Of a DNA stretch of 64,000 bases, positions 21,040 through 38,439 are shown in pieces; positions within the stretch are counted from its first letter, which is position 1; the number at the start of each line of letters is the position of its first letter. The notes under the pieces are model-generated. The model saw only the letters and a program-made list of their open reading frames with translations, was not told the origin of the DNA and ran no database searches. Source of the stretch: a virus. The stretch lies in the IMG/VR virus record IMGVR_UViG_3300046501_000460, positions 23,575 to 87,574 of that record. The stretch is one strand, 5' to 3'. Position numbers and translations under genes: made by a program.

Positions 21040-21888
21040 ATGTGGCTCAAGAACGCAACCATCTACGGGATCTCCCCCAAAGCACAATTCCCCATCGAGC
21101 AGCTGCAGGCTGCTCGATTCGTTCCTGTCGACAGCCTGCAGCTGCAGTCGGTCGGCTTCTCGCCAGTCCGCGAGGGCGAACTTGCCTACAGGCAAGGTAA
21201 GCACATCCTGCTGCGTTTCACGATCGAGAAGAAGCACATCCCGGGCTCGGCCGTAGCTGTGCTGGTGGAAGACAAGGCCGCGGCGCTGGAGAAAGCGCAG
21301 GGCTTCCCGCCGGGCAAGAAGGCGCGCAAGGAGCTCAGGGAGCGTGCGATCGACGAACTGCTGCCGCGCGCGCTGTCGACCCGCCGCACGACGCAGGTCT
21401 GGATCGACCAGGACCAGCACCGCATCGTGATCGATTCGGCCTCGAACTCGACCTGCGACGAGATCATCAAGGCGATGATCAAGCTGTTCCCGACGATCGA
21501 GTTCCAGGACGTCAGCTGGCCGCGCGCCAAGGTCGTGACGGCGTGGGTGGCCGACGAGGAGCCGGACGACTTCACGATGGACGATTCGGTCGTGCTGCAG
21601 TACCCGGGCGAGAAGGGCAAGCGCGTGAAGTTTGAACGCGCGACGGCGCAGGGCGCGGACGTGATCAACCACCTGACGGCCGGCGCCCACGTCGACTCGG
21701 TCGCCATGACCTTCTCCAGCCGCCTGTCGTTCGTCATGACGGACAACATGCGCATCCGCCGCATCAAGGCGCTGGACATCGTGCAGGAGGGCCGCGACGC
21801 TGAGAACGACGACCGCTTCGACAGCGACGTCGCGCTGATGACGCGCGAACTGGGCTGCCTGATCGACGCTCTGGTGCGGGAGGCGTGA
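21040..21888 (+). CDS. rdgC: Recombination-associated protein RdgC
   Basis: MWLKNATIY, S.GF.P, EKK..PGS.V, ELLPRA, RFDSD.ALM..EL..L. Confidence 0.92.
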   Translation: MWLKNATIYGISPKAQFPIEQLQAARFVPVDSLQLQSVGFSPVREGELAYRQGKHILLRFTIEKKHIPGSAVAVLVEDKAAALEKAQGFPPGKKARKELRERAIDELLPRALSTRRTTQVWIDQDQHRIVIDSASNSTCDEIIKAMIKLFPTIEFQDVSWPRAKVVTAWVADEEPDDFTMDDSVVLQYPGEKGKRVKFERATAQGADVINHLTAGAHVDSVAMTFSSRLSFVMTDNMRIRRIKALDIVQEGRDAENDDRFDSDVALMTRELGCLIDALVREA

Positions 21889-22196
21889 TGGGCATCCGTA
21901 AAATTGGGCCCGTGACCGAGGTCACGCCCGGTCAGTGGATTCTGCAGACCCCGCTGCTGAACGACCACCTCGTGTCCGAGCCGCGCGAGGTTATCCGCCG
22001 CTCCGGCAAGCGCATCTACTATCGCAACCGCCACGGAGAGGACGATGGCACCTACTGCAGCATCGCGACGGTAGTGGCCCTGTGCGACACGAAGGCGGAT
22101 GCGGACACCGTGTACGCCGTCAGCAAGTCGCAGTTCGATGCCCTGCGCGCGGTGCGTCACGACCACCTCGGCCGTCTCAAGGCGCTGGTCGCATGA
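21888..22196 (+). CDS. Hypothetical protein
   Basis: TGATG coupling. Confidence 0.75.
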   Translation: MGIRKIGPVTEVTPGQWILQTPLLNDHLVSEPREVIRRSGKRIYYRNRHGEDDGTYCSIATVVALCDTKADADTVYAVSKSQFDALRAVRHDHLGRLKALVA

Positions 22197-23560
22197 CCGC
22201 GTACTACAACGAATTCAACCCCGCGGCGGCCGAGTGGCTGCGCAACCTGATCGCAGAAGGCCTGATCGCGCCGGGCGTGGTCGACGAAAGGAGCATTGCC
22301 GATGTCACACCCGGAGACCTTGCCGGACTTGACCAAGTACATTGGTTTGCCGGAATCGGAGGCTGGTCCCTCGCTCTCCGACTTGCAGGCGTCCCTGATA
22401 GCCGTCCAGTCTGGACGGGCAGCGCGCCTTGCCAGCCTTTCTCCTCGGCAGGCGCAGGCGGCGGGTTTGATGATGAGCGGCACCTGTGGCCCGCTCTCTT
22501 CCACCATGTCAGCGTCCGACGACCTGCAGAAATCTTTGGAGAGCAGGTTGCAAGCAAGCCTGTCGACCTGTGGATCGACGCTTTACAAGCTGACCTGGAA
22601 AGCGTGGGTTACGCCGTCGGGGCGGTTGCGTTCCCGTCTGCGGGCTGTGGCGCACCGCACATCCGAGACCGCTGCTACTGGGCTGGCCGGCTGGGTAACG
22701 CCGACGTCACGCGACTGGAAGGATTCGGGAGCGGACATTCGACCCCGCTCGGACAATGGCAAGGCTCGACTGGACCAGCTGCCACGCCAGGCGAACCTGT
22801 GTGGCTGGCCGACGCCGATCGCGAAGGAGGCCAAGGCGGGTCTGCACTGCTCGAATCAGGTGACGGTGAGCATGGCGGCCCAACTGGTTGCGGACGGTCC
22901 GGCCCGGTTGCTGGTTTCTGGCGAGACGCTGACTGGCTCAGTTGCCGGGACGGCAAGTGGCGGCCAGTTGAACCCATCCCACAGCAGATGGTTGATGGGC
23001 TACCCAAAAGCCTGGGACGATTGCGCTCCGAACAAACCCACGCGTTCGCGAAAGAGGTGATGGAGTATGCCGAGGCCTGCGAAATCGACGCCAGAGAAGC
23101 GCTGCACAATGTGTGGATGTCGCTTGCAGAGGAGACGCTTCGGCGAACGTCTGGAGGACTTTCAGGCGTTCATGAAGCGCCAGTTTTGCTCGCTTTCCTG
23201 CGCCAACTCGCGTACGAAGGGTGGGACGTCGCGCAGGGCTTACCAAGCCCAAGCCCGCAAACTCCGGAAGGAGGCCTGCGAGTGTTGTGGGAGCGTGAAG
23301 CTGCTGCACGTGCATCACATCAACGAGGACTGGTCGGACAATCGTCCGGAAAACACGCAGACGCTGTGCGTGTTTTGTCATCAGTTCTGGCACGCCACAC
23401 ACAGGCGTGCTGGGGTGAAGCCTTCGACCGCCATGCCTCCGATGCCGTTCCTCTCATCGGTGACGCAAGGTCTCGGGTGATTCGTCTGCACGGCTACGGC
23501 AACGCCATTAACCCGTACGCCGCGGCCGCCTTTCTCAAAGCATTTTACGGAGTAAACTGA
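22193..23560 (+). CDS. DNA (cytosine-5) methyltransferase, alpha polypeptide, with ~140-aa insertion
   Basis: Motif [41 protein letters not shown]; no motif IX in this frame. Confidence 0.92.
22302..23060 (+). CDS. Overlapping +1-frame methyltransferase beta polypeptide (motif IX)
   Basis: GAAAGGAG RBS 8 nt before ATG 22302; WVTP/WPTP..RD repeats; [16 protein letters not shown] matches motif IX. Confidence 0.8.
23067..23480 (+). CDS. HNH endonuclease overprinted within the MTase alpha gene
   Basis: GAGGTG/GGAG RBS; CxxC...FCSLSC; CECCG...[25 protein letters not shown]. Confidence 0.88.
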   Translation: MPRPAKSTPEKRCTMCGCRLQRRRFGERLEDFQAFMKRQFCSLSCANSRTKGGTSRRAYQAQARKLRKEACECCGSVKLLHVHHINEDWSDNRPENTQTLCVFCHQFWHATHRRAGVKPSTAMPPMPFLSSVTQGLG

Positions 23561-23902
23561 ATGACCGCCGGAATCCTGGGCCCCTGTGCCCGCCGCGTTG
23601 TCCGCTGCACCCTGATCACGCCCGGCGGCCACGCCATCATCGGCGAGAACTGGTGCATGAACCCACAGCCCGCGTGCCCGCGCGCCGAGGGCGAAGGGTA
23701 CGAGAAGTGCCAGACGATCTGCCATCAGGTCGGCCACGCCGAGGAAGTCGCGGTGCTGCTGGCCGGGCCGTCAGCGGTCGGTGCCCACGCCTATGTCGAG
23801 AACCACACGTACGCCTGCCGCAACTGCCAGGAAGTCCTGTTTGCTGCCGGCGTCGCCGCGCTGACGATCGGCGCGCCACCTGATCGGAGGGAAGATGTTT
23901 GA
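23561..23902 (+). CDS. dCMP-deaminase-like Zn deaminase
   Basis: HAE and Y.CRNC motifs. Confidence 0.8.
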   Translation: MTAGILGPCARRVVRCTLITPGGHAIIGENWCMNPQPACPRAEGEGYEKCQTICHQVGHAEEVAVLLAGPSAVGAHAYVENHTYACRNCQEVLFAAGVAALTIGAPPDRREDV

Positions 23903-24119
23903 CAACGAAATTTTCAACGCAGGCCTGCACCATGTGGTTGCGGGTCTGCCGGGCGCGCTGTTGCTGTGGATCGGCGTCTGGATGGGGCGCCGCTCGCGCG
24001 ACATCGAAGTCCACGGCTACAGGCTGACGAACAGGTTCCTCGAGAACCTCGCGGTCATGAACGCGAAGATCGCGGACAAGGCACTTGCCGAGATCAGCAA
24101 GTCGCGGAAGGATACTTGA
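23895..24119 (+). CDS. Small membrane protein
   Basis: One hydrophobic segment; GGAGG RBS. Confidence 0.7.
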   Translation: MFDNEIFNAGLHHVVAGLPGALLLWIGVWMGRRSRDIEVHGYRLTNRFLENLAVMNAKIADKALAEISKSRKDT

Positions 24120-24553
24120 TGCCCTCGACCCCTGACTTCAACGTCGCCCGGGATCTCGAAAAAGTGCGCGCCTTAACGGCGCGCATTTCGTATCCCCACT
24201 GGATGCATCGGCCCGGGACCTGGACGTGGACGCGCCCCGACGGCATGTCGCAGGGCTTCTCGTCGATGATCTACACCCAGCCTGGCCTGTGCAATCTGCT
24301 GTGGCTGGCGATGGATCTGGACCGGCCGCCCGAGGCGTACAACGCGCTGGCCAACCCGCTGTACATGCTGCTGGTGGTCAATCGCGATGCGAAGCTGCGC
24401 GGCGAGCCGCTGACGGATATGGCGGCCCTGCTGACGCTGCGCCAATTCCACGACCTGCTGCCGGAATCGACAGCGGCCGTGAACCCGGTCGAGCACGCCT
24501 ACCCGCTGCTACGACTGCTTGCGGAAAGGAGGCTCGATCATGCTCACCCTTGA
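24119..24553 (+). CDS. Hypothetical protein
   Basis: TGATG coupling, AAGGA RBS. Confidence 0.75.
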   Translation: MPSTPDFNVARDLEKVRALTARISYPHWMHRPGTWTWTRPDGMSQGFSSMIYTQPGLCNLLWLAMDLDRPPEAYNALANPLYMLLVVNRDAKLRGEPLTDMAALLTLRQFHDLLPESTAAVNPVEHAYPLLRLLAERRLDHAHP

Positions 24554-25148
24554 GCAGGCGCAGGCTGCTGGACTGCGGCGTTTCTTTACGGGTCAGCCCT
24601 GCCGTAATGGCCACGCCGCAGAGCGATATGTCGCTGGCGGCGCATGCGTGCAGTGTGCAGCGGTTCGAATGGCGAAAGCGTCAAAAAAGTGGAAGGACGC
24701 ACATCGAGAGTTGATGCGCCAGGCCAGCAAATCATGGAGGGGTTCCAATGCAGATAAGGTGAGGGCGACCAACGCTGCCTGGGCCGCTGCGAATCCGACC
24801 CTGAAAGCCGAGATGCACAGGGCCTGGCGAGAAGCTAACCCGGAGTATCACCGTCGATACTCTGCCGCACGCCGTCAAAAGCAGTCCGAGGATCAGCTGT
24901 CACGAGGCATCGTGGAGAGACTGTGGCAGCTCCAAGCTGGCCGCTGCGCCTGCCCCTGCCGGCAGCACCTGCTGCGGAATGATTTTCACATTGACCATAT
25001 CGTCGCGCTCTCCCGTGGCGGGCGGAACATCGACAGCAACGTGCAATTGCTAACTCCGGAATGCAACCTGAAGAAGTACAACAAGGACAATTCGGAATTT
25101 TTCGTTGAGCAGGCTGCGAGATTCGGAGGGCGGCATGCTCACACTTGA
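24540..25148 (+). CDS. HNH homing endonuclease
   Basis: FFTG.PC..GH...RYV..G.CV.C; HIDHIVALSRGG.N..SN.QLL...CN. Confidence 0.9.
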   Translation: MLTLEQAQAAGLRRFFTGQPCRNGHAAERYVAGGACVQCAAVRMAKASKKWKDAHRELMRQASKSWRGSNADKVRATNAAWAAANPTLKAEMHRAWREANPEYHRRYSAARRQKQSEDQLSRGIVERLWQLQAGRCACPCRQHLLRNDFHIDHIVALSRGGRNIDSNVQLLTPECNLKKYNKDNSEFFVEQAARFGGRHAHT

Positions 25149-26583
25149 GCAGGCTATCGAGAGGTACCCGCTGCCGCACCCGCTGGGTGGCACGATGGTG
25201 CTGGAGGAGCTTCAAAAGCAGGACATCGTGCGCGCCGCCATGTGGCGCCGCGCGCTGCTCGATCTGCCTGTCGGCTATGGCAAGACGGTGATCGGCACCT
25301 GCATCTCACTGATGTTGCAGCCGGACGTCACTGTCGTGCTGGTGCCGCCGATCCTGATCGCGCAATGGGTCGCATGGCTCAACAGCATCCCGGGCGCCGG
25401 CACGGCTATCGCGTACAACGGCTCGCCGAAGGCGCGCGCGGCGATGCCAGTGGCAAGCGTGCGTTGGATCGTGACGTCATATCAGGTATTCAATAACGAC
25501 ATCGCGCGCCTGACGAAGGATCTGGCGCACCACGCAGTGATGCTGATGGTCGACGAGGTGCAGGCCCTGAAGGGCCGCGGCGTGCTCTTCAAGAACGTGC
25601 GGACGTTCACGGCCGGCGGCCGCGACCTGATCATGATGTCGGGCACGATCATGAGCAAGCCGGGTGATGGCTACGCGTACGTCAAGCTGAACACGCCGGA
25701 CGTCTACGCCAGCTACACCCAGTTCGAGAACATCCACGTCGAGAAGCGCGACCCGATGTTCAACCAGCCAACCGCCTGGCACAACCTCGATCTGCTGCAG
25801 ACGAACCTGAGCATGCGGCGCGTGCGCCGCACGAAGGAGGAAGTGCACAGCGCGCTGCCCAAGGCAAACTACATCCCGATCTACTACGACCTGTCGAAGG
25901 AGCACATGGCGCTGTACAAGCGCCTGATGAAGGAGCAGCTGCTGCTGCTCGACGACGGAAGCAAGATCGATGCCACGACGGCCACGCGGCTGTACCACGC
26001 CGCGCAGCAGATCGTGCTGGACTTCGGCCACTTCGCCGGTGACCCTGACAAGCGCAGCGCGATCTTCGACCTGGTCGACGGCATCGCCGCCGAGATCAAT
26101 CTCGGCGGCGAAATCATGATCGACAACGAGACGAGGCCGGCCAGCAAGCTGATCCTGTGGACCGCGCACCGCAGCGTGACGCGCCTGATCGGCGAGCACA
26201 TGTCGGCCCGGCTTGCACCACTTGGGAAGCGCGCGGTGATGGCGTATTCCGAGGTGGACTCGAAGAAGTCGGTGCGCGAGTTCATGAAGGACCCGAACAC
26301 GGTCAACCTGACAGCCCAGCCGGGCAGCGCGGGCGTCGGGCTGAACCCCCAGTACCTGTGCTGGGAATGCGCCTTCGTACAGATCCCGACGACCACGATC
26401 CCGTTCATCCAGGCATCTGGCCGGATCGACCGCAAGGGCCAGCGTTACAACCCGAACATCAGGTTGCTGGTCGCGCGCGGTACGATCCAGGAACAGCTGT
26501 TGAAGAACCTTTTCGACAATGACGACCTCGTGAACCGGGCGTCCGGGTCGAAAGCCGGGATCAGAAATTTGATTTTCCCGTAG
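25135..26583 (+). CDS. SNF2-like superfamily 2 helicase
   Basis: GYGKT, DEVQ, SGT, GVGLN, QASGRIDRKGQ. Confidence 0.9.
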   Translation: MLTLEQAIERYPLPHPLGGTMVLEELQKQDIVRAAMWRRALLDLPVGYGKTVIGTCISLMLQPDVTVVLVPPILIAQWVAWLNSIPGAGTAIAYNGSPKARAAMPVASVRWIVTSYQVFNNDIARLTKDLAHHAVMLMVDEVQALKGRGVLFKNVRTFTAGGRDLIMMSGTIMSKPGDGYAYVKLNTPDVYASYTQFENIHVEKRDPMFNQPTAWHNLDLLQTNLSMRRVRRTKEEVHSALPKANYIPIYYDLSKEHMALYKRLMKEQLLLLDDGSKIDATTATRLYHAAQQIVLDFGHFAGDPDKRSAIFDLVDGIAAEINLGGEIMIDNETRPASKLILWTAHRSVTRLIGEHMSARLAPLGKRAVMAYSEVDSKKSVREFMKDPNTVNLTAQPGSAGVGLNPQYLCWECAFVQIPTTTIPFIQASGRIDRKGQRYNPNIRLLVARGTIQEQLLKNLFDNDDLVNRASGSKAGIRNLIFP

Positions 26584-34227: not shown

Positions 34228-37200
34228 TGAAAAGATACCGTCGCGGCGGCTTTGACATGTCGTCCTTCATGTGGACGATGATGTCGTGGGGGAAGGACAA
34301 AGAAAACGGCTACGAGGTCGAGCACGAAGGGAAAACGGTTTACATCAATTCGGGCCAGTACGGCTACGACAATACGCTCGGCCGCATGCTCGACTGCATG
34401 AAGGCTTACAGGCTGAACCCGATCGACGTGATCCTCGTGTTCGAAGGCCAGAACAGCAAGGGCAAGCGCCTGCTGATCGACAACCAGTACAAGGGCGGCG
34501 ACAAGAGTAGCCGCCCACCCGAGGCGTACGCGGAATTCGAGAAGTGCCGCGAGATGCTGAAGACGACGTTCCGCGAGCTCGGCGCCCAGCTGCTGTGGCA
34601 GGACTTCGCCGAGGGCGACGATACGCTCGGCTGGCTGGCGCACAATACCGAGGACGACCTGATCGTCTTCACGTTCGATAACGACCTGACGGTGTTGAAC
34701 CTGCACCCGAACACCCACGGCGCGCGTGTCTCGACGTGGATCAACGAGATGTTCGAGTTCAACAAGTACGGCGTGTTCGACTACCACCTCGTCACCACCT
34801 ATAAGGCGTTGGTCGGCGACAGCTCGGACAACATCAAGGGTTGCCCGGGTTTCGGCCCGAAGAAGTTCGAGGCGCTGTGCGAGCAGTACGGCTTCGACGG
34901 CCTGGCCGAGATCCACCAGATGCTGGTGAACAGCAACCTGTCGCCGCTGGCCGACTACATCTCAGGTCCGCAGGACAAGCTGCTGCAGATGATCCTGGAC
35001 AACGCATCGCAGGTGATCCGCTGCTTCGACCTTGCGCGTATCCGCCCCGAGTGGGTGAACACCATGCGCAACCCGCTGCACTGGGAAGCCGGCATGGTGC
35101 GCCAGCTGCAGCCAACCGACCGCGACCCGCGGCTGAAAGCCTGGTACGGCCGTACGCGGCTTATCACCGGCACCACGTTTGCCCAGGCCTGCGAGTGGGC
35201 CATGCCGCACATCGCCGCATCGCGCGAGGTGGCGCTGGACATCGAGACCTCGACGCCGGACGAGTCCGACGAGTGGCTGGCCGCGCTGGGCGACCCGGAC
35301 GGCGTCGACGTGTTCGGCTCCGAGCTGACTGGCCTTGCGCTCACGTTCGGTCCGAACAACCAGTACACGCTCTACTTCTCGGTCGACCACGCCGACACGG
35401 ACAACATCGCCAGCGAGGATCTGCGCCAGTTCATCGCGTCGATCCCGCAGTCGATCCCGCTCGTCATCCAGAACGTGTCGTTCGAGCTGGCTGTGCTCTT
35501 CAACGAGTGGGGCGCGCGCCAGATGGACAACGGCTACCACGGCTTCCTGCCGAACGTGCTGGACACGAAGATCGAGGCCAACTACGTCGACGAGAACATC
35601 CCGACCGGCCTGAAGCAGCGCTCGCACGGCACCCTGGGATACCGCCAGCAGACGTACGAAGAGACGTGCGTGATCACGGCGCACCCGTCCGAGCTGTTCA
35701 AGGGCGGCAAGTTCGTGCGCGAGGACTACGTCTATGAGACGGTCGGCACTGGCCGTTTCGAGCCGCTGACGGCCGAAGAGGACGCCGCCGGCATCGTGCC
35801 GACCGAACTCACGAAGGTGCAGCTGAAGCTGGTACCAACTGGTGAAGTCGACGAAGCCGGCGAGCCGGTGATGGAGCCAGTCGTGGCCACCCAGACGCGC
35901 CGCTACAAGATGCGCGAGCTGCCGGCGGCCTACGTCCTTGGGTATGGCGCTGATGACACGATCTGCACGATCGCGCTGCACAACTACTACAAGCTGTTCA
36001 TGCAGCTGGAGCACACGTGGGACGTGTACCGCGAGGTGGAGATCGACGCGGCCTACCAGCACGCGAAGAACTTCATCGACGGTACCGAGATTTCGGTCGC
36101 GCGCTGCAAGGCGCTCGAGCGCGAGGACGACATCACGTACGACAACGCCTGGGAGGTGGTGCGCCAGTACCTGATCGAGCAGGGCTGGGCCGGCACGGCG
36201 CCGCCGACCTACACGATCGACATCACGCCGGCGCAGATCAAGGAGGCGTACACGATCGTGACCGGCGAGGTGCTGGACACGATGATGCGCACGAACTCGA
36301 AGATCGTGAAGTTCATCGAGACCGAGACGGAGCATCTGCAGTTCGCGCGCATGCTGGATCGGCTGGTGCAGGCCGGCGCGGCCGTGCGCGGCGAGAAGCA
36401 CGATCTGCCGGATGGCACCGTGCCGGCCGAGATCGAGAAGGAATTCACCGCGTACGTCCGTGGCTATTTCGAGGGCGAGCCGCAGTTCAACAAGGGTTCG
36501 CCGCTGCAGATGCAACGTCTGATGTACGGGGTGATGGGCCTGCCGATCCGTGTCCGGAACATGCCGACCGACACGATGAAGAGGGCCGGCATCCGCGAAG
36601 GCACGCCGAAGACGGACGCACTGGCCGTGGCCTACGCCTTGCAGGACTGCATGCCCGAGCAGAAGCCCGTGCTGGAAGCCCTCAAGCTGATGGGCATGGT
36701 CACGACGCGCCGCTCGCTGTATTACTCGAAGTACCCGTACTACCCGCACTGGAAGGACGGCCGCGTGCGCTCGCAGCACAATCAGGCGGCAACCGTTACG
36801 CGCCGCGCCAGCGAATCCAAGCCCAACAAGCAGCAGCTGCCCAAGCACGCGAAGATCGAGGGGCAGGAGGCCAAGTTCCGCGAGGTGATCGTGCCGCACA
36901 AGCCGGGCGCCGTCATTGTCTCCATGGACTTCGACTCGCAGGAGATGGTGCTGATCGCATTCCAGTCGCAGGACCCGAACGCACTGTCGTGCTTCCAGGG
37001 CGAGAAGCGCAAGTCGCCGCACACCATCACGGCGCTGGGTATCGTCCGCGAGGAGAACAAGCTCGACTGGACGTACGAGGACTACGAGGCGGCGCTGGAA
37101 AAAGCGCTGGGCGACGAGATGGCGCACCTCGCCAAGGAGACCCGCAAGCTGGGCAAGAAGGTGAATTTCACGGCCGAATATGGCGCGATGGCCGAGAAGG

Positions 37201-37811
37201 TCGCCGCCACGCTCATGATCTCGGTTGAGCGTGCCCAGCTGTTCCTCGATGCGCGCGCGGCGATGTACCCGGTCGCCGAGCAATGGAAGGCCGCCATCCG
37301 CGAGGAGGTGAAGCAGAACGGTGTCGTCCGGACCATGGGCGGCGCTGTGCGCCATCTGGGCGACATCCTGCAGAACGGCACCAGCTTCGAGAAGAGCAAG
37401 GCCGAGCGCCAGGCTGTCAACTTCAAGGTGCAGGGCCCGGCCGGCGAGCAGACGAAGCTTGCAGAAGGTCGCATGTGGCGCGACAACCTGTCGTACGACT
37501 TCGACGCGATCTGTTACGGGCCGATTCACGATGAAGTGGTCTGGTCGGTGATGCTGGAAGACCTGTACGAGTTTCTGCCGCGCTGCCATGCGGCGATGAC
37601 GGCGCCGTACGCCAACATGGACCTCGAGGTGGTGTCCACCATCTCGTTCGGCCCGAACTTCTACCGCCAGACCGAGATCGGCCCGTACCCGACCCGTGAG
37701 GCGATCGAGGCCGGCATGCTGGAGATGCATCTGCAGATGGTCGCCCGCGGCGAGACCACGTGGGAGCAGTCGTGGATTTCGAATGATGAACAATGGAAGG
37801 AGGCAGCATGA
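34227..37811 (+). CDS. polA: Family A DNA polymerase with 5'-3' and 3'-5' exonuclease domains
   Basis: EGDD, D.D, GDSSDNIKGC.G.GPK; DIET, YGADD; motif A DFDSQE, B RKLGKKVNF..YG, C HDE. Confidence 0.93.
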   Translation: MKRYRRGGFDMSSFMWTMMSWGKDKENGYEVEHEGKTVYINSGQYGYDNTLGRMLDCMKAYRLNPIDVILVFEGQNSKGKRLLIDNQYKGGDKSSRPPEAYAEFEKCREMLKTTFRELGAQLLWQDFAEGDDTLGWLAHNTEDDLIVFTFDNDLTVLNLHPNTHGARVSTWINEMFEFNKYGVFDYHLVTTYKALVGDSSDNIKGCPGFGPKKFEALCEQYGFDGLAEIHQMLVNSNLSPLADYISGPQDKLLQMILDNASQVIRCFDLARIRPEWVNTMRNPLHWEAGMVRQLQPTDRDPRLKAWYGRTRLITGTTFAQACEWAMPHIAASREVALDIETSTPDESDEWLAALGDPDGVDVFGSELTGLALTFGPNNQYTLYFSVDHADTDNIASEDLRQFIASIPQSIPLVIQNVSFELAVLFNEWGARQMDNGYHGFLPNVLDTKIEANYVDENIPTGLKQRSHGTLGYRQQTYEETCVITAHPSELFKGGKFVREDYVYETVGTGRFEPLTAEEDAAGIVPTELTKVQLKLVPTGEVDEAGEPVMEPVVATQTRRYKMRELPAAYVLGYGADDTICTIALHNYYKLFMQLEHTWDVYREVEIDAAYQHAKNFIDGTEISVARCKALEREDDITYDNAWEVVRQYLIEQGWAGTAPPTYTIDITPAQIKEAYTIVTGEVLDTMMRTNSKIVKFIETETEHLQFARMLDRLVQAGAAVRGEKHDLPDGTVPAEIEKEFTAYVRGYFEGEPQFNKGSPLQMQRLMYGVMGLPIRVRNMPTDTMKRAGIREGTPKTDALAVAYALQDCMPEQKPVLEALKLMGMVTTRRSLYYSKYPYYPHWKDGRVRSQHNQAATVTRRASESKPNKQQLPKHAKIEGQEAKFREVIVPHKPGAVIVSMDFDSQEMVLIAFQSQDPNALSCFQGEKRKSPHTITALGIVREENKLDWTYEDYEAALEKALGDEMAHLAKETRKLGKKVNFTAEYGAMAEKVAATLMISVERAQLFLDARAAMYPVAEQWKAAIREEVKQNGVVRTMGGAVRHLGDILQNGTSFEKSKAERQAVNFKVQGPAGEQTKLAEGRMWRDNLSYDFDAICYGPIHDEVVWSVMLEDLYEFLPRCHAAMTAPYANMDLEVVSTISFGPNFYRQTEIGPYPTREAIEAGMLEMHLQMVARGETTWEQSWISNDEQWKEAA

Positions 37812-38092
37812 AGGCAGCAGTAACGAAGGACGAAGTGTTCACCCTGACCGTCGGCGACGTGAAGTTTGCAGACATGCGCGCCGTGTCGCGATGGGAAGGC
37901 CTGACGAAGCTGCAGAACGGCCGCGGCGAGGCGCTGGTCGTGTCAGGTCTCGGCGACGGCCGCAGCTTCGGCGCCGCGTTCGACACGATCTTCGGCGGCA
38001 TCTTCCGCACCGGAGACCAGACTGACGAGGCTGGCGTGCTGATCGTGATGGGCTCGCCGTGCCTGCTCGCGCAGATGAGGGAGAAAATATGA
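37808..38092 (+). CDS. Hypothetical protein
   Basis: ATGA coupling. Confidence 0.7.
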   Translation: MKAAVTKDEVFTLTVGDVKFADMRAVSRWEGLTKLQNGRGEALVVSGLGDGRSFGAAFDTIFGGIFRTGDQTDEAGVLIVMGSPCLLAQMREKI

Positions 38093-38439
38093 GGGACCTT
38101 GTCGCACTGGCGGTCGCCCGAACCTTGGGCGTCTCGTCGAAGATGATCTTCGGCTGGGAGCTGAACGCGCTGCAGCGCGGCATTCGCGGTGCACCGGGCA
38201 TGCTGGAGACGCAGTTACAGGTTCACCTGTTCAGCGACCTAGAGATGCTGCGCCGGCTCCAGAACGGCGAGCGGCGCGGCAGCTGGGCGCTACACGGCGT
38301 TAGCGCGGAGGCGGGCGGTCCGCTGGATGTTCCAGCGCGACTCGATGTCGTGCTCCTGTACGGTAAGGAGACGCAGCACATCTTCAAGGCGCTGGCGCAG
38401 CAGATGGTTTACCGCAAACCGGCGAAGCGCCGGAAATAA
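38089..38439 (+). CDS. Hypothetical protein
   Basis: GGAG RBS, ATGA overlap. Confidence 0.65.
   Translation: MRDLVALAVARTLGVSSKMIFGWELNALQRGIRGAPGMLETQLQVHLFSDLEMLRRLQNGERRGSWALHGVSAEAGGPLDVPARLDVVLLYGKETQHIFKALAQQMVYRKPAKRRK

Follow-up and report, generated by a model that had tools for sequence, protein, structure and literature searches.

The window analysed here is a 64,000-nucleotide (nt) stretch of viral DNA (positions 23,575 to 87,574 of IMG/VR record IMGVR_UViG_3300046501_000460, a complete genome of 87.6 kb with direct terminal repeats), and it contains a C5 DNA methyltransferase gene with a second gene, for an HNH nuclease, hidden inside it. Very probably, the nuclease gene is a promoter-less, selfish HNH cassette lodged in the gene of a two-polypeptide methyltransferase, where all three proteins stay whole and nothing is spliced. 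An original prediction, made from the letters of the window alone, had proposed that the nuclease spares its host gene by overprinting, with no splicing element. Its coordinates for the methyltransferase, for two flanking segments and for the nuclease were exact on recheck (all features below lie on the + strand, in window positions), and its central proposal is borne out by stop-free frames in 32 of 32 relatives, by selection on both the HNH frame and motif X, and by searches that returned no Rfam or intein match.

The host enzyme is encoded by two overlapping frames. The alpha subunit (22193..23560; 455 amino acids (aa), with an ATG at 22193 and a stop at 23558-23560) matches Pfam DNA_methylase (2e-10) and the PHROG family phrog_363 (8e-72); its catalytic columns are invariant in alignment A1, with motifs I, IV, VI and VIII located 5′ of the insert and motif X (GYGNAI) located 3′ of it. 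The beta subunit (22302..23060) is read in the +1 frame of alpha, has a length of 252 aa from the ATG at 22302 (a TTG start at 22296 is also possible), and shares an overlap of about 760 nt with alpha (window 22193-23060). It carries W-x-T-P repeats and a motif IX-like segment at its end, and matches PHROG 'DNA methyltransferase' families (2.7e-29 for phrog_1008); no Pfam or NCBIfam family was found for it. In layout, the gene pair is of the M.EcoHK31I type, having motifs I-VIII and X on alpha and motif IX on beta, in another frame inside the alpha gene. The +1-frame beta ORF (open reading frame) is kept in all 80 related viral loci and in epsilon15, BcepC6B and PMG1; in PMG1, beta is intact and the N-terminal part of alpha lies in a different frame. 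GenBank records mostly annotate one of the two subunits and omit the other.

The hidden gene (23067..23480; 137 aa) is read in the beta frame, that is, +1 relative to alpha, and its prediction as an HNH nuclease is supported by motifs and profile matches. In particular, a four-Cys ribbon at the N-terminus is followed by a CxxC...HH...N...N...CxxCH...H core, and an HH...N...N...H core with two CxxC pairs characterizes the HNH (beta-beta-alpha-metal) superfamily. The ORF matches PHROG HNH families (best 5.8e-08), the ZorE HNH of PADLOC (7.8e-08) and, weakly, the YajD and IscB HNH models of NCBIfam. Across the 14 relatives in alignment A2, all eight Cys residues and H83, H84, N92, N96, H105 and H109 are invariant, and the A2 profile matches the DotN HNH-like fold (1.8e-05) and the IscB HNH region (0.013).

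The methyltransferase frame, which is the −1 frame of the HNH, remains open across the nuclease gene. The original prediction had put forward as a check that this frame should stay stop-free across homologous inserts, and there are 0 stops in all 32 embedded copies (the window and loci L004-L017, L050, L051, L060, L076, L092 and L106-L117), about 28 of which are distinct (L011 equals L012, L051 equals L050, L106 equals L007, and L017 is close to L016). When the synonymous codons of the window HNH were shuffled, the alpha frame was stop-free in only 0.80% of 20,000 and 0.60% of 5,000 trials, with a mean of 3.8 alpha-frame stops. Across 27 loci, the probability of having no stop ranged from <0.0002 to 0.064 (0.006 for the window); for L005 and L116, which are poor in G+C (guanine plus cytosine), no stop-free shuffle occurred among 5,000. 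An alpha-frame stop requires an HNH codon ending in T followed by a codon starting with AA, AG or GA. In the same 27 loci, T-ending codons account for 0 of the 1013 codons that precede such a codon and for 682 of the 3197 codons that precede any other; the nominal Fisher value of 9e-91 overstates independence because the loci are related. The controls L021, L023, L024 and L118, which lie outside both methyltransferases and out-of-frame inteins, have 14 to 41 stops in the HNH −1 frame. A chance open alpha frame was ruled out by the shuffles (0.6-0.8% stop-free) together with the 32 of 32 open relatives.

Codon-position comparisons indicate selection on both sides of the cassette's 3′ end. The proportions of differences at codon positions 1, 2 and 3 (d1, d2 and d3) of the HNH frame are 0.31, 0.32 and 0.49 over 48 pairs with less than 70% identity, which is, as far as substitution patterns tell, the signature of a coding frame under purifying selection, a second check that the original prediction had named. 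All 23 HNH-bearing loci retain motif X beyond the insert, where the alpha-frame d1, d2 and d3 values are 0.31, 0.30 and 0.55; because motif X is conserved there, it can be argued that ribosomes reach it and that it matters. Within the HNH, the alpha-frame first position, which is the HNH third position, is the most variable, and synonymous third-position identity is 0.59 for the HNH compared with 0.57 for the N-terminal part of alpha. The codon-position comparison shows no constraint on the alpha-frame insert peptide past stop avoidance, so that its apparent motifs (LRx...) would be by-products of the CxxC and other motifs of the HNH frame.

These data also bear on the idea that the open frame is a by-product of G+C content, or that it only prevents polarity on downstream genes, with alpha non-functional past the insert. 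The region has about 60% G+C in the window, which makes long open frames likelier; the alpha stop is followed at once by the start codon of the next gene (TGAATG); and L014 and L108 are open without having an alpha catalytic domain. However, the window shuffles give P values of 0.006-0.008, the G+C-poor L005 and L116 yield 0 stop-free shuffles of 5,000, and motif X lies past the insert in every one of the 23 loci with coding-type substitutions in the alpha frame, which makes a by-product very hard to credit.

The ends of the cassette are defined by a pair of closely related loci. The flanks of L060, which has the HNH, and L039, which lacks it, are 92-94% identical; L060 has 477 nt in place of 6 nt of L039, a net gain of 471 nt, and the names of both contigs carry one common IMG dataset number. 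Transferring these ends to the window places the HNH cassette at 22976..23446 (471 nt, or 157 alpha codons), accurate to a few bases. The insertion point is VEPG|TFPL in alpha and LNP|xHSRWLMG, within motif IX, in beta. At the left junction, the break follows GTTGAACCCGG, with VEPG in the alpha frame and LNP in the beta frame; beyond it there is a new beta C-terminus (xxSRWLMGxPxxWDxCAP...) with a stop, and then an ATG abutting it or nearby. At the right junction, the host sequence is back at the alpha F-P-L codons and leads to RVxRLRxYGNAI. The HNH ORF extends into the displaced original beta tail, and the HNH of L060 ends with the same ...PTATQLTRKQRKPSSKV as the beta of L039. In the window, a spare, recoded beta C-terminus accordingly occupies the 5′ part of the cassette (22976..23060, with the stop TGA at 23058-23060), and the original 3′ copy (23447..23560) carries the alpha frame through motif X to its stop, with the HNH ORF ending inside it at 23480.

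The original prediction had drawn these boundaries differently, describing two similar segments in the methyltransferase frame (22982-23026 and 23450-23509) with the insert between them. The 423 nt between the segments are indeed 141 stop-free alpha codons; the insert is better taken as 22976-23446, 157 codons, with the first segment included. Because the cassette spans about 22976-23446, the first segment is its spare copy and the second is the original. Their similarity holds in so far as each matches the single segment of insert-free alleles, FPLAHGAPSRVGRLR (6/15 residues for the first and 8/15 for the second); aligned by eye with each other, they have only 2/15 residues in common.

The codon usage of the spare segment provides a further marker. 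Of 62 insert-free alleles, 58 encode the Ser of beta motif IX by TCC, a codon that doubles as coding sequence for the alpha F-P-L; of 20 left copies with an HNH, 17 use AGC or AGT for this residue. By this pattern, the spare beta tail appears to travel together with the cassette. The sole insert-free allele with an AGC Ser codon is L025, the sister of the window methyltransferase, and it may be the product of cassette loss. In many insert-free alleles (the L001 (epsilon15) group, L029, L033, L054, L055, L074, L089, L099 and L103), a variable linker of 10-25 aa lies between DGxxxRxG and RVGRLxGYGNAI, which is the region duplicated by the cassette; such linkers could be remnants of cassettes since lost, or could serve to loosen the alpha/beta overlap. 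Among listed sequencing runs with matches, none is of RNA and two are DNA runs from the rhizosphere; in one of the two, the likely source, the full stretch is found within one contig, with no joints and no sign bearing on splicing. Two short contigs from other organisms (7-8 differences per 57 letters) diverge at 22969 and then resemble insert-free alleles; they are not counted as polymorphism because they are too dissimilar to the window.

The presence of two copies of one methyltransferase segment around the insert could suggest that an unrecognised form of RNA or protein splicing removes it, yielding a mature alpha without the insert; in a study of mycobacteriophage methylases (PMC11855218), a similar feature was initially considered as a possible intron sign. 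No intron or intein was found in alpha by computation. Rfam has no family at E<=1 over 21500-24500, and the HNH ORF, which starts within the 471-nt insert, continues beyond its 3′ limit and leaves only about 91 nt of the insert, at the 5′ end, outside the ORF, which is little room for a ribozyme. A group I or group II intron was rejected on these two grounds and on an RNA fold z score of 0.68. The Pfam scan of alpha returns DNA_methylase alone and no Intein_splicing, though the same library finds that domain in L018-L022, and the alpha-frame insert peptide has no PHROG match. Directly past the insert, alpha has V or F and then P, where an intein +1 position would have C, S or T; an intein was rejected by the missing domain match and by these residues. 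Moreover, a spliced element needs no stop-free host frame, yet stop-creating codon pairs occur in 0 of 1013 cases. Taken with these results, removal of the insert by splicing is extremely unlikely.

The start of the HNH gene is closely tied to the end of beta. A Shine-Dalgarno-like sequence, AAGAGGTGA (23052..23060), overlaps the beta stop and lies 6 nt upstream of the HNH ATG; its GAGGTGA purine run, 6-7 nt 5′ of the ATG, together with the PHROG and PADLOC matches and the conserved residues, upholds the original prediction of an HNH in the +1 frame with its own ribosome binding site (RBS). That prediction missed that the HNH shares the frame of beta, that there is a spare beta C-terminus, and that the HNH starts directly past the beta stop. 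The start is 6 nt beyond the stop in the window, and in 19 of 22 alpha/beta-type loci the distance is 0-6 nt, mostly behind a purine-rich run. Because of this placement behind a Shine-Dalgarno-like run, the HNH would be translatable by coupling or re-initiation. In several loci, beta and HNH form a single ORF of 441-531 aa with no intervening stop (L007, L009 and L109; L106 is identical to L007). A scan showed no promoter-like site near the HNH; terminator-like sites number 4 compared with 1.9 expected, which is not meaningful, and the RNA fold around the HNH start (z of 0.68) is no better than in shuffles, leaving a sequestering hairpin unsupported.

Relatives of the cassette are found in viral contigs, phages and bacterial genomes. 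Scanning viral contigs with the HNH identified 19 loci, including 12 with 55-76% identity, and the GenBank phage relatives are in Komagataeibacter phage phiKX1 (57.5%) and Staphylococcus phage CUB-EPI_14 (37%). For CUB-EPI_14 (L005), the record annotates at 36629-38434 only a 601-aa 'DNA-cytosine methyltransferase' that covers the HNH; the unannotated HNH ORF has 160 aa (locus 2501-2983) with AGGAGG located 8 nt upstream. A scan of species genomes found 13 HNH loci, 12 of them within C5 methyltransferase genes, whose hosts include Nitratireductor, Erythrobacter, Ralstonia and Burkholderia, together with metagenome-assembled genomes (MAGs) labelled Lacunisphaera, Bacillota, Lentisphaerae, Methylococcaceae and Solibacter. 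In L005, L115, L116 and L117, the enzyme is a single-chain C5 methyltransferase with the insert directly 5′ of motif IX. In L076 (2408-2872), the site and frame that the cassette uses in alpha/beta methyltransferases hold a differently organised HNH, across which the alpha frame is open; in it, the nuclease core comes first, followed by a Cys-rich ribbon resembling the C-terminus of the Staphylococcus phage copy.

Most of the nearest methyltransferase loci lack the cassette. Among the best 80 of at least 600 loci found by scanning with the N-terminal part of alpha, 5 have the HNH (L060, L076, L092 and the mutually identical L050 and L051) and 75 do not. On a tree of this part (172 columns and 92 rows, by a quick search, leaving out L002 and L013 as too short and loci without an alpha N-terminal match), HNH presence changes at least 8 times, and at least 4 of these changes are forced by strongly supported branches. 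In particular, the closest methyltransferase to the window is the insert-free L025 (81% over 172 columns, support of 100), and L060 pairs with the insert-free L039 (support of 98). The distribution of the HNH on this tree is patchy.

Weaker relatives of the HNH core also occur in the +1 frame of inteins, located in terminase large subunits (L019:1066-3786, L020:970-3657 and L018:2-1465) and in a DNA polymerase A (L022:721-3525). All four have Pfam Intein_splicing matches and a host/intein frame that is stop-free across the HNH; in 5,000 shuffling trials, none was stop-free for L020 and L022, with P values of 0.026 for L019 and 0.33 for the short L018. By their domain matches and frames, these loci are inteins whose predicted endonuclease is read out of frame.

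This distribution helps to evaluate whether nuclease and methyltransferase instead form a working unit, in which the DNA-binding beta would tether the HNH or be produced along with it, and the HNH would act with the methyltransferase. Such a unit could function like a restriction or phage-exclusion system to which methylated or cassette-carrying DNA is immune. Such a unit would account for the beta stop and HNH start being coupled in 19 of 22 loci and the two genes being fused in 3, for an intact HNH with catalytic residues kept in 14 of 14 aligned copies, and for the location of 12 of 13 genome hits within C5 methyltransferase genes of several phyla. In contrast, 75 of the 80 nearest methyltransferase loci do without the HNH, L060 and L039, near-identical alleles of which only the first has it, share a dataset number, relatives of its core sit in terminase and DNA polymerase inteins, which are a typical homing setting, and PADLOC returns nothing for alpha, beta and HNH beyond its generic type II methyltransferase and HNH models. 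A working unit is thus improbable, and the compact three-protein system of nuclease and protective methyltransferase that the original prediction offered as its alternative fits poorly with the 75 loci without an HNH and with the L060/L039 alleles.

Overall, a selfish cassette is the reading that we prefer, and its proposed mechanism is as follows. An HNH homing-endonuclease cassette of about 471 nt would enter the 3′ part of a phage alpha/beta methyltransferase gene, with its 5′ end supplying a replacement beta C-terminus that has its own stop. The HNH would be read in the beta frame, 6 nt past the beta stop and behind the Shine-Dalgarno-like run. Its codons would be chosen to leave the alpha frame (HNH −1) stop-free, so that alpha ribosomes would translate a further 157 codons before reaching the original copy of motif X. 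The enlarged alpha would still work with beta, the extra peptide being a tolerated passenger, and the HNH would cut insert-free alleles at or near the insertion site and spread by repair.

Several observations weigh against this account. The three fused beta-HNH ORFs (L007, L009 and L109) suit a working partnership equally well. HNH translation, cleavage and homing, and methylation by the enlarged alpha, are predictions, and the candidate target site is deduced from the junctions alone. The HNH ORF scores below the Pfam gathering thresholds (18.5 compared with 24.8 bits for HNH_3, and 16.5 compared with 21.4 bits for HNH). Since the loci are related, neither the Fisher test nor the 32/32 count consists of independent trials. 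In addition, the frame is open across the HNH in L014 and L108 in the absence of the N-terminal catalytic part of alpha, in L107 within an odd fusion of beta-like and alpha C-terminal sequence, and in L113 next to a frame switch at the left junction. Since these four loci look damaged and are still open, stop-freeness may be a property of the cassette, preserved as it travels and not by current selection on alpha in every host; alternatively, the four loci reflect recent decay or MAG assembly errors.

The original prediction had presented the locus as the best candidate for an undescribed system, which no longer holds: Arsenault, Gosselin and Gogarten (2025, PMC11855218) have reported the same kind of arrangement from the methylases of mycobacteriophages. 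Their ShiLan domain is an insert with an open methylase frame that hides an out-of-frame HNH, for which they found no RBS and proposed leaderless initiation. To the extent of that description, both systems are patchily distributed, lack intron and intein features, keep the methylase frame stop-free while a different frame encodes an HNH with zinc fingers, and repeat a short piece of flanking methylase sequence at the edge of the insert. They differ in that the HNH is in the +1 frame in the window and in the 'third frame' in ShiLan; in that the host gene of the window encodes a two-polypeptide C5 enzyme with an overlapping beta, whose spare tail the cassette brings along; in the RBS and stop-start coupling that are visible in the window lineage; and in the hosts of that lineage, which belong to the Proteobacteria and to further phyla. 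The HNH matches 17 phage records at E<=1e-3, and not one bears a Mycobacterium phage name. Judged by record names and frame relation, the window HNH lineage is probably separate from ShiLan and of independent origin.

Other known systems share single features with the window. M.EcoHK31I (PMC2836561) is a natural alpha/beta C5 methyltransferase with beta in another frame inside the alpha gene; it is likened to the window by this layout alone, and the consulted part of its description mentions no nuclease insert, whereas the window has one and a beta of 252 aa with W-x-T-P repeats. Edgell et al. (2010, PMC2988022) treated mobE, located in nrdA of Aeromonas phage Aeh1, and the free-standing mob and seg endonucleases of T4. 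In mobE and T4 mob, as in the window, a promoter-less HNH cassette lies in or beside a conserved phage gene with no intron or intein, and a stop-start overlap suggests translational coupling; in contrast, nrdA is split by mobE into two polypeptides, and the window host frame is continuous through the nuclease gene. Inteins with an out-of-frame endonuclease (bioRxiv 10.1101/2025.01.02.630785, of an endonuclease VII-like type, and bioRxiv 10.64898/2026.09.14.751524) likewise place an endonuclease in another frame of an insert that is open in the host frame, but their host-frame peptide is protein-spliced and the window alpha has no splicing domain. Further, free-standing homing endonuclease ORFs in fungal mitochondria adjoin C-terminal duplications of atp6 and cob (PMC6279837). 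That partial C-terminal host copy across endonuclease ORFs resembles the spare beta tail and displaced original of the window. The fungal endonucleases, however, belong to other families, their host genes are not overlapped by a second host frame, and the endonuclease gene is not read through from the host frame.

The literature covered, which did not extend to the supplementary survey tables of PMC11855218, yielded only ShiLan papers, a genome announcement and two intein preprints, and in none of it was the alpha/beta form found described, with its spare beta tail and its coupling of beta stop and HNH start. New here are a probably unrelated HNH lineage, a different frame relation, a three-gene overlap with a spare beta tail, a translation signal and an occurrence across several phyla.

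The neighbouring genes provide additional context. The next gene (23561-23902) begins at the alpha stop, and its product has a weak match to a cytidine/deoxycytidylate deaminase zinc site (Pfam 0.018, below the cut-off). A second HNH-type ORF of 209 aa (24519-25148), with HIDHIVALSRGGxNxxxNxQLLxxxCNxxK, lies just upstream of a helicase-like gene (25105-26583).

A broader reading, which we regard as rather doubtful, is that stop-free, frame-shifted HNH cassettes are a widespread third way into conserved genes besides introns and inteins, with beta, in the alpha/beta type, borrowed by coupling or fusion as a DNA-targeting partner. If so, such a cassette would evolve readability in the host frame and colonise both alpha/beta and single-chain C5 methyltransferases, across Proteobacteria, Verrucomicrobia, Bacillota, Acidobacteria and Lentisphaerae, and methylase and nuclease would make up a selfish unit that eliminates cassette-free rivals in co-infection.

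The 2025 description in PMC11855218 left two points unexplained, the translation of the hidden nuclease and the survival of the host enzyme, and the window lineage offers testable answers to both: an RBS at the beta stop-start junction, a spare beta C-terminus that appears to travel along, and a ban on stop-creating codon pairs (0/1013). The strategy of hiding an HNH is not confined to mycobacteriophages, as relatives lie in C5 methyltransferases of phages and prophages from several phyla. Moreover, gene callers report one long 'methyltransferase' for such loci and miss the nuclease, as in Staphylococcus phage CUB-EPI_14. With its 1.37 kb encoding three proteins in two frames, including that of a mobile guest, the locus provides a compact model of the constraint that overlapping genes place on one another.

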